Assembly: GCA_051362555.1 (NCBI GenBank)
Contig: CM120640.1
Coordinates: 12,896,001 to 12,960,000, forward strand
Origin: Lingula anatina
Taxonomy: Eukaryota; Animalia; Brachiopoda
Direction: 5' to 3'
DNA: 64,000 bases
Below the pieces are notes generated by a model. That model worked only from the letters and a program-made list of their open reading frames with translations, made no database searches and was not told the origin of the DNA. The stretch's first letter is position 1. Each line of letters begins with the position of its first letter. The position numbers were made by a program, and so were the translations under genes. Shown in pieces: positions 34,592 to 45,030 of the stretch.

Positions 34592-35813
34592 AACTACCAG
34601 TGCCAGAGTTGATAAAAAGATATTTGTGCAACAGTTATCACATTTCATTTCTGGTAAATTTAAACATGGGCACATAACACTTTAAAAAGAAACTATGACA
34701 ACATTTCTGTGGAGGTGTGCACCATCAAGTTTTTAATGGTGTACCAGATTGTTGGACAAACCAGTCACCACAGAACAAATACACCATGGACATAATGTCA
34801 GGTGCTGCCCCAATGAACAATTAAGTGAACTACCAGTCTGTTGTACCCTAGGTTCTAGATTCCGGTATTGTCAGCTCGATCTTGATTTCATATATAACCC
34901 ATATCAACAATACTAAAAGCGACTCCATCACAAGGTATATATTTAACAAGCTAGCTTTTACATTGCTCTGACACTCAGGGTAGTCTGCTGTTATGTACGT
35001 GAGAAATGACAAATGTCAAATAGAGGTCAAGTTTTTTCTTTTGTTGGTTTGTAGTTTTAAAAAACCATTACACCAAAAATTTTCGATGGATTTTGATTTA
35101 AGGTTAGGATAGGTCAGAAATAGGCCAATCAACAAAGTAAAATAATGAAAGTTGTGTGTAAATTTGCTTACTGTTTTTTTTTTTTTTTTTTTTTCAGTTC
35201 AGACATTTAACATTGAAAGCTAATTTCCAATGTAGCTATTGACATTTAAAAAACGATATTTGATTGGCAGATGCTGGATTATCGGCCCATCAAGTGCATT
35301 TTGTACATGACCTTTACACTCAATAAATCAAGGAATTATTAATAAAATATTTAAAAATGAAAAAAAAAAGTTTTGGTGATTTTTGACCATGAAGGCCCCA
35401 AAACTATTGGGATTGTTCCTTCTAGTCAAATACACGATTTTGCCCTTCAACAAATTTAACTACAAAACCAGTATAAAGAACAATTTTATTTCAAAGATGT
35501 ACAGTTGGTTATATCAATTACAATAAATTCAAGTGCAAAGAAACATACTGGAGAAATACAATATGTCAAAATGTTTTGAAATTGTAAACGATAAACCATG
35601 TGTGAAAAGTTACTACCAAATGCAGATGTGATCCTAACATAGTGGCTCTACCATTTTGACATAACTTGAAACCAAGATATGCAAAGAGAAACTTGCATTT
35701 TTATAAAAAAAGATTTTAACTAAGATTGCTTATCAATTCATTGCAGCAAAAAAGTGAAGGTTTTTGCTCCTGTCCAAAAGTATCGAGTCAAAATCAACTA
35801 TAAGTGACCATTA

Positions 35814-35993
35814 TCATTCCAAGTTTTCAGAGCTTTCTTTTTTCAACTTTCCCGTGCGAATAAGAAACTCTTTCATTTCTATTTCATTTTTTTCAATTTG
35901 CCTAGAAGCTTGATATTGTTTCAATGCTGTAATGCCAGAGAAAACTCCAACAACACCTGCTAAACCACCCAAAACTATAAAGAACGAGCGCAT
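35814..35993 (-). CDS. Uncharacterised 59-aa single-TM microprotein (ORF C), below the ORF-track cutoff
   Basis: MRSFFIVLGGLAGVVGVFSGITALKQYQASRQIEKNEIEMKEFLIRTGKLKKESSENLE*; A at -3 (aacagtATG); Gly-rich hydrophobic helix then a charged helical tail; starts 20 nt after the PIGBOS1-like stop. Confidence 0.6.
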   Translation of the reverse strand: MRSFFIVLGGLAGVVGVFSGITALKQYQASRQIEKNEIEMKEFLIRTGKLKKESSENLE

Positions 35994-36013
35994 ACTGTTG
36001 CTTGATGATGCTA

Positions 36014-36238
36014 TTATTTAATGTTCTTTTCTAAATCGGTATTAATTTCACTGTTTTTCTGTTTGGGTTCACCTCCTTGAGAAGCTTGAGACTTTTCCAG
36101 TTCTTGTTGAGCTACAATTCTTTGTATTTCAAAGTACATGGGTTGCCAAGTATAAATAGCACTACCCACAGCCAAAGTCAAAATTACAACAAGATCTCTT
36201 TTTGGCATCCGTTGTAATTTTCTCAAAAACCTCTGCAT
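36014..36238 (-). CDS. PIGBOS1: PIGBOS1-like mitochondrial outer-membrane microprotein (ORF B, 74 aa)
   Basis: RMPKRDLVVILTLAVGSAIYTWQPMYFE aligns by eye with human PIGBOS1 RLTFAQLLFATVLGIAGGVYIFQPVFE (TM + YxxQP motif + Q/E/K-rich tail); acceptor ttttacag ends at 36247. Confidence 0.7.
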   Translation of the reverse strand: MQRFLRKLQRMPKRDLVVILTLAVGSAIYTWQPMYFEIQRIVAQQELEKSQASQGGEPKQKNSEINTDLEKNIK

Positions 36239-36346
36239 ATCTTATACTGTAAAAGAAGGGTGGAAAAAAGCAATATATTAATTCATTTAAAGGTGTGTAT
36301 GTCTGTGAATTTCAAACTTTTATCCCTATGTGTTTAAAATCACATT

Positions 36347-36793
36347 AAATCCATTGGCGGTATCTAGTGATCACTGTCTGTGCCCTGAATACCCTGCGGC
36401 GTAATTAACTAGCAGCGCGAGCGAGTCGTTTCCAAAGCTGTAATTAATTCTCGGCTGCACTCGGAGGAGATTCTGACGCCTGGACGTATGCGCAGTATAT
36501 CTCTAAACTGTGGAGTTCATCAGTTTGCATTCATATCTGTCGTGTGTATATGGTCCTCATCTATTTCCTCTTGTTGTTGCACAAATTCGACAAACATTTT
36601 TCAAAGCAACCGCGGCCGCCATTTTCGTTCTCTCTAACTTATTACTGCGCATGCGTCCAGGTGTCAGAATCTCCTCCGAGCGCAACCAAGATCTAATTAC
36701 AGCTTTGGAAGTAATTAGCTCGATCTGCTAGTTAATTACGCAGCATTGTATTCAGGGCACAGACCGTGATCACTAGATACCGCCAATGGATTT
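36347..36793. mobile_element. Fold-back MITE with ~150-bp imperfect TIRs
   Basis: aaatccattggcggtatctagtgatcac...gcgcagta (36347-36497) is mirrored by tactgcgc...gtgatcactagataccgccaatggattt (36643-36793). Confidence 0.85.
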
Positions 36794-37124
36794 TTGGAAT
36801 TTGGATTTTTCATGTGAACGGTGCCTAAGCTACTTTGCTCTACATGCTTGCTTACATGCAAACAAAGCCTGTGCAGTGGGGTGTTTTACCAATGTAAATA
36901 GGGTGGAAGGATTGACATTTAAAAAATTTAATCTATACATATGCAATAAAAATTTCCAAACATGTTAGTCACTTTAAAAAATGCAAAAAAAATAATAATA
37001 ATAATAAAAAAATAATAATAATAATAAATAAATAAATATATATTCATGCACTTATTGCTCACAATGTTTTATTTGATTTTTTTTTATACTAACATGCAAG
37101 TAGAATACATGATCATCAACCATA

Positions 37125-42480: not shown

Positions 42481-42679
42481 TTGGTTAGTTGCCAATTTAA
42501 GTTTCTGTGTAAGACTTATACATATTTCTCTTTCTAAATCTACTGGATCACATTCACCCATCAGAAAAGTTTGTTCTTATTAGAACTAGATAAGTAAATT
42601 ATAATTTAGACTCTAAACTTGAATCTACATGGAAAATAATCTCTAAGTAATGTTAAAAAATTATTATACCTCGAGAGTT

Positions 42680-42859
42680 TTAAGCATCTGTCGTAGCCTG
42701 ATTTATTCTCTTCTGTTTTGGTCTACGTGTCAAGTCTGCCCATTTATTTTTCACATAACCAGGGCCAAACATAAGGATTGTGGCTCCAAGGATAAGATTG
42801 AAACAGAAGTAAAGAGGATGTCTGATTCTCTCTCTGGGACCGAGAGGGATTCGAGCCAT
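42680..42859 (-). CDS. Uncharacterised 59-aa single-TM microprotein (ORF A) in its own predicted exon 42670-42866
   Basis: MARIPLGPRERIRHPLYFCFNLILGATILMFGPGYVKNKWADLTRRPKQKRINQATTDA*; acceptor ttgtttattgcag 7 nt before the ATG; donor AG|gtataa 10 nt after the stop; basic N-terminus, hydrophobic helix, basic tail. Confidence 0.55.
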   Translation of the reverse strand: MARIPLGPRERIRHPLYFCFNLILGATILMFGPGYVKNKWADLTRRPKQKRINQATTDA

Positions 42860-43118
42860 TCGTAATCTGCAATAAACAATACACAAGTTTAATTTCAAAA
42901 ATACAGCGAAGTAAATGTTTCTTTTCTGACAACTTCTTAGCAGGGTAGATATAACCAAGAATTTTAACACGCGTAATGATATCCTAAAAAGGAAAAAAAA
43001 TGTAAGATTTAAGACAAATGCTAGTACATGTTGGGATGTGTTTATGTCCTTTATGTACGAGAAAGATGAGCTCGGAAGAGCTGTTTGGGATGTGATATCC
43101 TGGTGTTTCCCTATGTAA

Positions 43119-44251
43119 AGCCTTAGTCACAACTGGACGTAAGGGCCGTTTGCGTCCAAATTTTCCGCAGGATCTCAGAATCTTTAAAAAATTCAAGTTT
43201 GCAGACAGCCTGTAAGCAGGCAGGAAGGATATTAGACATGTCCAAAAGATTCTACAAATAATTTGCAAACAGTGAGGCTGCAAGTATAACCTGCTCCTCT
43301 CGCAAGGAATTCGGAAGGAGTTTGCAAGTAACACATGCAATTTTAAAGGTACTGAGAAGATAAACCATGATCTATGACGCATGTCGCAAGCAATGAAGGA
43401 GCAAGTGCCCTTTGCGAGTTGAGTACAGCTTATGCCTTCACAACTTAAAAAAATTGCACGCACTGCAAGAATACTTCACACAGTTTGAGTCACACCCATG
43501 CCAGTAATATAAAACAAAGGCATGTTCACATTGCACACTCTCATTTCACTAGTGGTGGTGGATTGTACACCATGTATTTATAATATTGAGAAATTCAATC
43601 TTTGATATGCTTCCAAAAAGAAGGGGTAAGAAAGGTAAACAACAAAGGAAGGAAGGAGGAAGAAAGAAGGGGAGAAGAGGAGAGGAGGCCAGTGTGGAGA
43701 GACAGGCAGAGGCAGAAGATGAAGATACAGAAAGAGTAGGTCTTCAAGATTCAGACTTGACCAGCACTTCCACTGGGAAGAGAAACCAACAGCAGACGTA
43801 CAGCTTCAGGGCTAAGGAAGAAGAGAAGCTGGTTGAATTTTTCTCCACCTATGACTGCTTCTACAAGGCATCCCAACAATATAGCAATGTATCATACAAG
43901 AAGCTGCTTCTGGAAGGTATAGCCAGTCAACTTGACACAGAATGTGAGTATTAATTTTTATAACAATTTTTATCATTTTTTCATGCTACATTTTTCATGC
44001 ATTTTTTTGAATCTGCTTATATATGTGGGATAATTTTGTTGATATTGACATTTGCCTTATGTATGCTGACTTCAGATGACAAGATTCAGAGCTGGTTCAA
44101 AAACCAGCGAACTGCTGTTGGGAAGCTTTACAAGAAGATATCTGGCATTGCAGCAGAGACCCTGACTGCAAGGAAGAAGTGGCAGTTGCCAAATTTCAGT
44201 TTCCTGAAGCAACACATCATGCCAAGGTTGTACACTCAGGACACAGAATTG
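43119..44251 (+). mobile_element. PIF/Harbinger remnant with spliced Myb/SANT(MADF)-like ORF
   Basis: TAA|AGCCTTAGTCACAAC TIR-like start at 43119; exons 43607-43943 and 44076-44251 give EEEKLVEFFSTYDCFY...IASQL...IQSWFKNQRTAVGKL...LTARKKWQLPNFSFLKQHI, typical of Harbinger DNA-binding proteins. No right TIR or DDE ORF found. Confidence 0.65.
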
Positions 44252-44936
44252 GTAAGCATTGCATTTTTCATCTGGCTACGTGTGGTCTTCCTCTTTTTGT
44301 CCTCTTCCTGTTATCCTCTTGTGTATACATTATGAGTATTAATTCATAGTCCATTTTATATGTTGTTTGTGTTGTTTTATGCTTTATGTTATACAAAGTC
44401 AATTATTGTCTAGGAGGAATTCCAGAATTTGGAGTGTAAAACATTTGTTAAAATGGCTTATTACCACACAGGCATGGGCGGTGACACAAGGGAAGTGTGC
44501 AAGTACTTGAACAATACAAGTACGTAGAACTATGTCCTGTCATAGATGTCAGTGAGCACTTAATTAAAGAGAACAATACTTATGGTAGTTATAGTAAAAG
44601 CGGACAATGACAAAAGCAGACACTAACAAAGTTTACTGGATGAAAATGATTGATTCATGTAAGTTGTACAACTTCCATCCTACATACAATATTACTGCTG
44701 AAGTGACAGGCCATGAACTAGTGATGAACAGCAACAGTTAAACTGGACAGGAGGTCGTCAAAATCAATTATTATTGATGATTTGATGATGGGCATGAAGC
44801 GCAACGACAGATTTTTCTGCACATGCATTTAACAAGCTATATTCAACAGAATAAGGTGTTGTTTAACTTCCTAGTGATGACAAAATCACTGCGTCATCTT
44901 AAGAGAAAAGATTGTCAGCGATTGAAACGCTGAAAA

Positions 44937-45030
44937 ACTTACAACTATCTAGCCCTGCACCACAAGCACGCCATCCGCCATGTCGGCTTAGCTAGTTCTA
45001 CGTCACATGATGACGAAACGTCAAAAATGG
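44937..45030. promoter_or_regulatory. Compact bidirectional promoter: first exon of the minus-strand microprotein unit and start of MAP7
   Basis: Minus donor gtaagt at 44937-44942; divergent YY1-type ATGGCGG motifs (minus ATG 44981, plus ATG 45027); central CGTCA-CATGA-TGACG inverted element at 45001-45015; CpG cluster. Confidence 0.65.

Follow-up and report, generated by a model that had tools for sequence, protein, structure and literature searches.

A spliced three-exon mRNA of the brachiopod Lingula anatina with three tandem ORFs for predicted membrane microproteins, one of them weakly PIGBOS1-like

Messages that encode three proteins are rare in animals and are best documented in insects. 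Among the closest described systems is the sloth1-sloth2 mRNA of Drosophila, a bicistronic message for the orthologues of SMIM4 and C12orf73/Brawnin (PMC9681215), while the silkworm provides a tricistronic mRNA, uENF1-uENF2-PP (PMC2978622). The FlyBase polycistronic set includes 159 dicistronic, 7 tricistronic and 2 tetracistronic cases (PMC4528330), and 32 polycistronic fly smORFs have been reported, with an enrichment for small and mitochondrial proteins (10.1101/2022.04.24.489283). Human cells contain bicistronic uORF-microprotein mRNAs such as STREMI-SLC35A4, MIURF-MIEF1 and PYURF-PIGY, as well as ASDURF-ASNSD1 (PMC13303939).

The microprotein PIGBOS1 is located in the mitochondrial outer membrane and binds CLCC1; its human gene has two exons and a single ORF and lies opposite PIGB (PMC6814811). 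Drosophila CG34310 is an independent 129-aa locus (PMC12740097). The portions of these two papers available to us contain no polycistronic description of either gene, and neither PIGBOS nor mRpL17 was found in 12 supplementary files of PMC4528330. A literature search, with subscription journals outside its scope, likewise returned no description of a polycistronic PIGBOS1 mRNA.

The window analyzed here, a 64,000-nucleotide stretch of contig CM120640.1 from Lingula anatina, contains a single spliced three-exon mRNA on the minus strand, in which three ORFs follow one another in the order A-B-C (Table 1). The transcript is supported by short RNA-seq reads in all five runs used (X1, X4, X7, X8 and X9, from three studies, with 6-30% of each run covered). 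An earlier note, made from the DNA alone, had predicted both introns, and the reads join exactly the predicted bases. Junction 44943>42866 is crossed by 198 reads in four runs (118 in X1, 33 in X4, 23 in X7 and 24 in X9) and by 28 more in X8. Junction 42670>36246, on which the proposal of a single transcript depended, is present in 220 reads (78, 51, 44 and 47 in the same four runs) and is also supported in X8. The shorter side of these second-junction reads extends up to 75 nt, so the stop of A and the start of B are joined on one RNA; ORFs B and C share exon 3. Re-reading the sequence confirmed spacers of 18 nt between A and B and 20 nt between B and C, and a distance of 10 nt from the A stop to the last junction. 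Together the three ORFs occupy 88% of the RNA from the cap to the C stop, and all three are intact in two diverged lineages.

Table 1. Features of the transcript and its introns, in the order of transcription (positions in the window)
Feature	Position	Strand	Basis
Two short uORFs in exon 1	44945..44981	-	sequence
Exon 1, 37-nt leader, GTAAGT donor after 44943	44943..44979	-	RNA-seq, all 5 runs
Intron 1, 2076 nt, GTAAGT...TTGCAG	42867..44942	-	RNA-seq junction
Exon 2, 197 nt, whole of ORF A inside	42670..42866	-	RNA-seq junctions
ORF A, 59 aa	42680..42859	-	sequence; all within exon 2
Intron 2, 6423 nt, GTATAA...TTACAG	36247..42669	-	RNA-seq junction
Second MITE-like inverted-repeat element, intron 2	41984..42527	.	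inverted repeats, reads
Pogo/Tigger-like DNA transposon, intron 2	37123..41939	-	26-nt terminal inverted repeats, TA ends
MITE-like inverted-repeat element, intron 2	36347..36793	.	151-nt arms, 88%
Exon 3 (terminal), ORFs B and C and 3' UTR	35480..36246	-	read depth; lower bound approximate
ORF B, 74 aa	36014..36238	-	sequence; PIGBOS1-like match weak
ORF C, 59 aa	35814..35993	-	sequence
Read 3' end cluster, downstream of C stop	35767	-	X1, 14 of depth 60; X4, 19 of depth 90
AATAAA, likely distal polyadenylation signal	35485..35490	-	sequence; low-depth coverage reaches region

Read 5' ends cluster only at 44977-44987, mostly at 44979/44980. Exon 1 contains two ATGs that the earlier note had overlooked. 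The ATG at 44981 opens a uORF of 10 codons, and most 5' ends fall inside this ATG itself; the ATG at 44974, about 6 nt from the cap, opens one of 9 codons, and run X4 has one further uAUG in exon 1, as read from the consensus of loose ends. A likely gene start on the opposite strand (45027) lies 46 nt away. At the other end, mean coverage of exon 3 declines to 0.5-1.7 in the bin 35200-35566, compatible with the proposed end at AATAAA, though the end is not pinned: the second cluster of read ends, at 35767, could mark a proximal end of the RNA or reflect priming at a short stretch of A. Much of both introns had been described as transposon sequence. This was shown for one of them, intron 2, 75% of which is one pogo-like element (with profile matches to HTH_psq, HTH_Tnp_Tc5 and DDE_1 segments) accompanied by two inverted-repeat elements. 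The element at 36347..36793 attracts many partly fitting RNA-seq reads on both strands.

Each ORF has a predicted TM segment. In A, which has a net charge of +8, the best 19-residue hydropathy is 1.63 from residue 18; in B, a single segment (1.51 from residue 16) is followed by a charged C-terminal tail; and C carries an N-terminal segment that is the most hydrophobic of the three (2.11). GC content by codon position runs GC1>GC2>GC3 in every one of them. The likeness of B to PIGBOS1 survives in part. Among 24,736 Pfam models PIGBOS1 (PF23670) is the only match of B, at E=0.044 and 14.4 bits for the whole ORF and at 16.3 (E=0.011) and 14.1 bits for trimmed versions, yet these scores of 14-16 bits lie below the Pfam gathering cut-off of 27 bits. 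The alignment pairs B residues 24-55 with profile positions 18-48, the stretch where the chain exits the TM segment. Trimmed C matches the same model faintly (E=3.6, 8.2 bits), and A has no Pfam match.

Wider searches were blank. A word-index search returned one candidate for B, with none at E<=1, and none for A; exact look-up found 0 of 6 proteins; metagenome contigs held no homologue of B or A; and PDB sequences gave the three ORFs only repeat-driven matches or matches at E>0.2. For C alone, HMMER was run against 1.84 billion representatives and produced no credible homologue, the lone match (P0001, a 369-aa repeat protein, in four stretches) being spurious. Such blanks do not demonstrate novelty, since these collections are poor in unannotated animal microproteins.

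Selection on the ORFs was assessed against a lineage 5-7% diverged, with variants taken from RNA-seq and figures that cover the listed changes. None of the 35 listed substitutions creates a stop or alters a first ATG, although this lack of new stops would arise by chance with P=0.26 (the product of three per-ORF values). The stops of A and C are untouched by any listed change, and the only listed ORF indel falls in the tail of B, which in the diverged lineage is 68 aa long, having lost six tail codons; of its in-frame internal AUGs there, M34 is lost and M11 polymorphic. The earlier note had asked for dN/dS below 1, and the three ORFs answer differently: omega is about 0.2 for A (5 synonymous changes vs 2.05 expected and 3 nonsynonymous, P=0.028), about 0.5 but not significant for C (5 synonymous, 7 nonsynonymous, P=0.17) and about 1.5 for B (4 synonymous vs 5.3 expected). 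The pooled synonymous excess has P=0.12. Radical changes are depleted in the pooled set (4 vs 10.7 expected, P=0.006), in a test chosen after seeing the data, and replacements are conservative in B (P=0.014) and C (P=0.041). Divergence is 7.4% in B and 6.8% in C vs at least 7.9% in the 3' UTR. Purifying selection on the three ORFs is thus only partly shown. A frame of B shifted by one base, in which 7 of 15 changes are synonymous, was rejected, as it is broken by stops.

Chance tests speak to the arrangement as a whole. A set of three ORFs that do not overlap and reach 59 codons or more, a threshold that fits the observation itself, appeared in 1 of 5000 dinucleotide shuffles and in none of 504 genomic windows, and in no shuffle out of 5000 did all three have TM segments.

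For the way ribosomes would read such a message, the earlier note had proposed leaky scanning or reinitiation. The base at -3 is C for A (weak) and A for C, as it claimed, and G for B; B is thus medium and C the strongest of the three, a rise C<G<A that has meaning if the Kozak rule is valid for this species. In polycistrons read by leaky scanning, AUGs are depleted before downstream ORFs (PMC11291117). No such depletion is seen here: B has 6 AUGs upstream of it and C has 9, which weakens the idea of a clean leaky-scanning design. The internal AUGs anticipated in A include three out-of-frame ones vs 1.9 expected, of which the AUG at 42687 opens a frame overlapping the start of B. It is true that B contains no out-of-frame AUG, but with 1.4 expected this is not beyond chance (P=0.19). 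Because nine AUGs stand before C, pure leaky scanning is strained, and scanning plus reinitiation is likelier. Ribosomes would enter at the cap, and most of them would scan past the AUG close to it; a fraction would start at A in its weak context, and the rest would leak on, or restart after the mini-ORFs of 1 and 6 codons inside A, to reach B and then C. NMD includes a junction-dependent form of decay, which would not be expected for this RNA, given the position of the A stop just before the last junction and of B and C in the last exon. The products may be signal-anchored in a mitochondrial membrane, as the weak PIGBOS1 match of B and the layout of hydropathy plus basic residues suggest.

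Taken together, the evidence leans towards a small eukaryotic operon, a three-exon mRNA whose three tandem ORFs would encode predicted single-pass membrane, probably mitochondrial, microproteins. The single spliced A-B-C RNA of the earlier note stands; purifying selection is shown in part, B scores below the PIGBOS1 cut-off, and leaky scanning in its pure form looks strained. A bolder version seems doubtful to us, namely a microprotein-only animal operon in which a PIGBOS1-family protein and two new membrane partners, made in a ratio set by start codons and mini-ORFs, join one mitochondrial complex.

It is also conceivable, though rather unlikely, that useful protein comes from only one or two of the ORFs, either because the real gene is that of A, with B and C as passengers in its 3' UTR that are poorly translated or in decay, or because A acts as a long uORF of regulatory function that restrains B. 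The omega of B, the lack of significance for C, the many upstream AUGs, the difference in B length between lineages and the sub-threshold PIGBOS1 score are all in keeping with this. Weighing on the other side, every ORF retains its start and TM-coding frame, the replacements in B and C are conservative, chance very rarely yields three TM ORFs tiled in this way, and C, the last in line, surpasses the others in start context and in the hydrophobicity of its segment. The three-ORF RNA might instead be a precursor, or one among several isoforms, with B or C made mostly from monocistronic messages through an internal promoter, trans-splicing at 36246 or skipping of exon A, but this appears improbable. 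Most fly dicistronic loci do have monocistronic forms as well (114 of 159; PMC4528330), and the reads cover 6-30% of each run, with many further joints and loose ends beyond those listed. Measured 20 nt into exon 3, reads over the second junction nevertheless equal 64-86% of the depth, so the GTATAA donor of A is used efficiently, and no skip of exon A occurs among the joints listed for the five runs; the earlier caveat of a weak donor loses its force, and that of a skipped A finds no support in this listing. Nor was there, among the ends listed for the five runs, an internal cluster of 5' ends or a loose end at the 36246 acceptor, or, in X7-X9, read-through behind exon A into intron 2 (bin 42302-42603). 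More improbable still is a bidirectional promoter that yields a long non-coding RNA, spliced and with ORFs present by chance. The blank homology searches, a divergence near the UTR rate and the nearby opposite-strand gene start would suit it; the rarity of three such ORFs in shuffles, the GC bias by codon position and the depletion of radical changes would not. A structured RNA was rejected, as no Rfam match was found and folding is unremarkable (z=0.98 and -0.55).

One variant concerns origin and is compatible with the operon reading: A, B and C could have arisen long ago as tandem copies of a single PIGBOS1-like coding exon and been spliced into one message. We regard this as possible, if on the unlikely side. 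A and B share L22, G25, I28, an aromatic residue at 31, P33 and Y35 at equal residue numbers as well as a PKQK stretch, their ATGs each lie 7-8 nt after a splice acceptor, and C has its faint match to the PIGBOS1 model; paralogous cistrons have precedents in sloth1/2 and in the approximately 18% of fly polycistronic loci that contain similar genes (PMC4528330). On the other hand, BLASTP aligned no part of A with B, Smith-Waterman scores (P=0.12 for A-B, 0.54 for A-C and 0.09-0.29 for B-C) are equaled by chance TM ORFs, A has no Pfam match, and no DNA similarity was found for A-B or A-C. The B-C DNA match (P=0.006 vs mononucleotide shuffles) falls in tails rich in purines and probably reflects composition. 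Paralogy among the three is not established by these comparisons.

A read-confirmed mRNA that lacks a long ORF would be missed by standard annotation or classed as non-coding. To our knowledge, the role of PIGBOS1 outside mammals has barely been studied. If all three ORFs are translated, the locus yields two orphan microproteins of the membrane, for which guilt by association points to PIGBOS1, and if the microprotein-only operon were true, A and C would name missing partners, or hidden paralogues, of that protein. The message also offers a compact natural reporter, 1 kb long, for the question of how ribosomes get past nine AUGs to a third cistron.

Set beside the known systems, the Lingula mRNA resembles sloth1/2, with back-to-back single-TM small ORFs on one transcript, a short spacer, a weak first start and a stronger one downstream. 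It differs in having three ORFs rather than two, a junction that separates A from B, and no Pfam match of A or C to families of the sloth kind. Conservation of the sloth pair extends across eukaryotes, whereas for A and C no homologue was detected, and translation, location and complex formation have been demonstrated for sloth1/2, whereas the Lingula ORFs are predicted from sequence and reads. As in uENF1-uENF2-PP, three ORFs share an animal mRNA, and the uENF type is read cap-dependently by context-dependent scanning. That message encodes cytokine precursor-like products, its translation has been shown and reinitiation argued against, whereas predicted membrane microproteins are encoded here and the mini-ORFs in A make some reinitiation likely. 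Like PIGBOS1 and CG34310, ORF B places a charged tail after its single TM segment and has its coding sequence within one exon; unlike PIGBOS1, it scores below the family cut-off, and no PIGB-type match was found in eight plus-strand ORF pieces (46015-49585). The human bicistronic mRNAs similarly place small proteins with intronless coding sequences on one mature message, but there the partner of the microprotein is a long main ORF, while all cistrons here are shorter than 75 aa. Polycistronic smORF mRNAs are already known from sloth1/2 and the silkworm uENF message; what this case adds is three ORFs without a long one.

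Every coordinate of the tricistronic mRNA proposed in the earlier note was found in the sequence, with minus-strand ORFs of 59, 74 and 59 codons (A, B and C) and, under the proposed splicing, spacers of 18 and 20 nt and a stop of A 10 nt ahead of the last junction. The single spliced mRNA was itself borne out by short RNA-seq reads across both junctions. Nine runs carry the same species label, and five (X1, X4, X7, X8 and X9) were aligned, with 6-30% of each read. Junction 1 (44943>42866), which leads from exon 1 into the exon holding A, was crossed by 118, 33, 23 and 24 reads in X1, X4, X7 and X9, and junction 2 (42670>36246), which leads on to the exon holding B and C, by 78, 51, 44 and 47; X8, under a stricter likeness threshold, contributed a further 28 and 4. 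In X7 and X9, a single-letter mismatch in the spacer shifts the placement of junction 2 by 2-3 bases. Both introns have GT-AG borders, and the stranded runs X1 and X4 assign the RNA to the minus strand. Since the shorter side of junction-2 reads reaches up to 75 nt, A's end is joined to B's start, and depth is unbroken across B and C, both in one exon. Junction-2 reads amount to 86, 85, 70 and 64% of the depth 20 nt into exon 3, and no skip of A's exon appeared among the joints listed (the best 15 of 44 and the best 15 of 22). The short reads thus show a one-mRNA architecture for A, B and C.

On the 5' side, the read ends of every run gather mainly at 44979/44980, and smaller groups lie at 44987 and 44977. 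The account of exon 1 in the earlier note overlooked two ATGs, at 44981 and 44974; given the main cluster, the leader to A is ~44 nt and mostly lacks the first of these. A loose-end consensus at junction 1 in X4 (16 reads) implies an allele at 44960 with an extra uAUG, from which a uORF of 3 codons would run in the reading frame of the first uORF; this indicates that the leader tolerates change. On the 3' side, read ends cluster at 35767, which may be a proximal 3' end or a priming site, and weaker depth runs on towards the AATAAA at 35490.

The plus-strand ATG at 45027 stands 46-48 nt from the minus-strand start and likely belongs to a gene that shares a bidirectional promoter with the A-B-C mRNA. 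Eight downstream pieces of this candidate gave no convincing Pfam match, and plus-strand RNA is scarce in the stretch covered by reads. Both head-to-head starts have an ATGGCG core, which we take to resemble YY1/TISU elements.

Features in the introns and surroundings of the A-B-C mRNA (window positions)
Feature	Position	Strand	Remarks
Spliced intron in pogo-like transposase	40546-40854	-	CT..AC joint in X7-X9, between HTH_psq and HTH_Tnp_Tc5
Direct duplication, 171 nt, 98% identical	38955-39313		3' part of transposase region
Class-V aminotransferase gene, multi-exon	~31000-34592	+	Pfam Aminotran_5
Other genes	2249-3313 (-), 19428-19856 (-), 24969-25193 (-), 60681-63825 (+)		include single-ORF galactosyltransferase and THAP-domain ORF (Pfam)
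Two ORF-like stretches, 115 and 112 codons	43607-44335 (intron 1)	+	separated by short AT-rich gaps
Head-to-head ATG	45027-45080	+	A at -3, G at +4 (strong context); GTAAGT donor after 15 codons

Reads over the joint within the transposase probably come from related copies, and indicate that the pogo-like family is transcribed. The ORF-like stretches in intron 1, with no convincing Pfam match and almost no RNA reads, are possibly a transposon-derived remnant. The aminotransferase gene appears to end ~900 nt from the AATAAA of the A-B-C mRNA, in convergent orientation. The four other genes presumably include SMCR8-like and MAP7-like genes, named by sequence resemblance.

Each ORF has one hydrophobic segment, the top 19-residue Kyte-Doolittle means being 1.63 (A), 1.51 (B) and 2.11 (C). 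Such a segment alone is common, since 28 of the window's 103 ATG ORFs with lengths of 50-100 aa have a mean of 1.6 or more. When the 1001-nt RNA was dinucleotide-shuffled 5000 times, three non-overlapping ORFs with 59 codons or more, a threshold fitted to the observation on exons fixed independently by the reads, arose in a single shuffle, and in no shuffle with TM-like segments; none of 504 genomic windows of equal length held three such ORFs. Together A, B and C occupy 88% of the RNA between cap and C's stop, and in each GC declines from codon position 1 to 3. Structured RNA was also considered and rejected, there being no Rfam family match and only ordinary folding.

The PIGBOS1-like identity proposed for B stands as to layout and sole Pfam match (PF23670, PIGBOS1-like; 14.4 bits, E=0.044), but the score, 16.3 bits even with the tail trimmed, falls under the cut-off of 27. 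B has a PIGBOS1-like layout and is a candidate member of the family. A has no Pfam match, and C has weak TM-type matches only, including a faint one to PF23670 when trimmed (E=3.6). No homologues of A, B or C were found in the protein, PDB-sequence and metagenome-contig collections searched. A and B have six motif positions in common at identical residue numbers, which raises an origin by tandem exon duplication, but their similarity is unexceptional under shuffles (P=0.12).

X1 and X4 are close to the window, but runs X7-X9, all from a single study, depart from it by 5-8% over 35650-42870, and by about 5-7% within the exons of the mRNA, despite the same species label. Their reads may stem from a cryptic lineage or a sister species, or the label may be at fault. 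The differences, seen in RNA only, are mostly fixed and of all types, and are read as genomic divergence. Among the variant rows listed, 8 changes from A, 15 from codons 1-68 of B and 12 from C entered a test whose synonymous-count null preserves the mutation spectrum; three rows (42716, 42774, 36206) vary within the X7-X9 study, and a change at 36021 in B's tail was left out as lying beyond an earlier stop. For these changes, synonymous counts were 5 against 2.05 expected in A (P=0.028, omega ~0.2), 5 against 3.09 in C (P=0.17, omega ~0.5) and 4 against 5.29 in B (P=0.84, omega ~1.5), with a pooled excess at P=0.12. The signal of purifying selection is thus weak, and for B the counts speak against it. 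Most of B's replacements exchange V, I, M, F, T and A for one another. A conservativeness test, chosen post hoc once these types were seen, gave 4 radical changes or stops against 10.7 expected (pooled, P=0.006), and mean BLOSUM62 exceeds the null in B (P=0.014) and C (P=0.041), not in A (P=0.44). The first ATGs of all three ORFs and the stops of A and C survive every listed change. In the diverged lineage B ends at 68 aa, well beyond the TM segment, owing to a one-base gap at 36033, and the listed variants include two 3' UTR indels in X7/X9 over ~160 nt. Overall, reading frames and amino-acid character are preserved while the sequence drifts fast.

Upstream of B there are 6 AUGs and upstream of C 9, most with a pyrimidine at -3. 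Scanning can restart after short uORFs, and two AUGs within A, at 42756 and 42743, start frames of no more than 1 and 6 codons. The absence of AUG depletion, with the two short frames, favours leaky scanning plus reinitiation as the route by which B and C would be reached. That the diverged lineage has lost internal AUGs of B agrees with such a scheme. An AUG at 42687 opens a frame overlapping B's start and would lower B output; C would probably be the lowest-abundance product. Translation of all three predicted microproteins from one mRNA is moderately probable, and a mitochondrial location of the products would be a further inference.

The base at -3 is C in A, G in B and A in C, so that start context strengthens along the message, a pattern reported from mutation experiments to balance the products of Drosophila sloth1/sloth2 (PMC9681215) and of a silkworm three-ORF mRNA (PMC2978622). 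Leaky-scanning bicistrons in algae are reported to be marked by AUG depletion (PMC11291117), unlike the A-B-C mRNA. No description of a polycistronic PIGBOS1 mRNA was found in the literature searched; human PIGBOS1 is described as a two-exon gene opposite PIGB (PMC6814811) and fly PIGBOS as an independent locus of 129 aa (PMC12740097). Polycistronic mRNAs encoding small proteins are already known: reports cite 7 tricistronic and 2 tetracistronic loci in fly (PMC4528330), 32 of 298 conserved fly smORFs as polycistronic, with layout seldom conserved (10.1101/2022.04.24.489283), and 14 bicistronic mRNAs in human (PMC13303939). What is new in the A-B-C mRNA is its make-up: it has no long ORF, and of the three microproteins, all predicted to be membrane-anchored, two are orphans.
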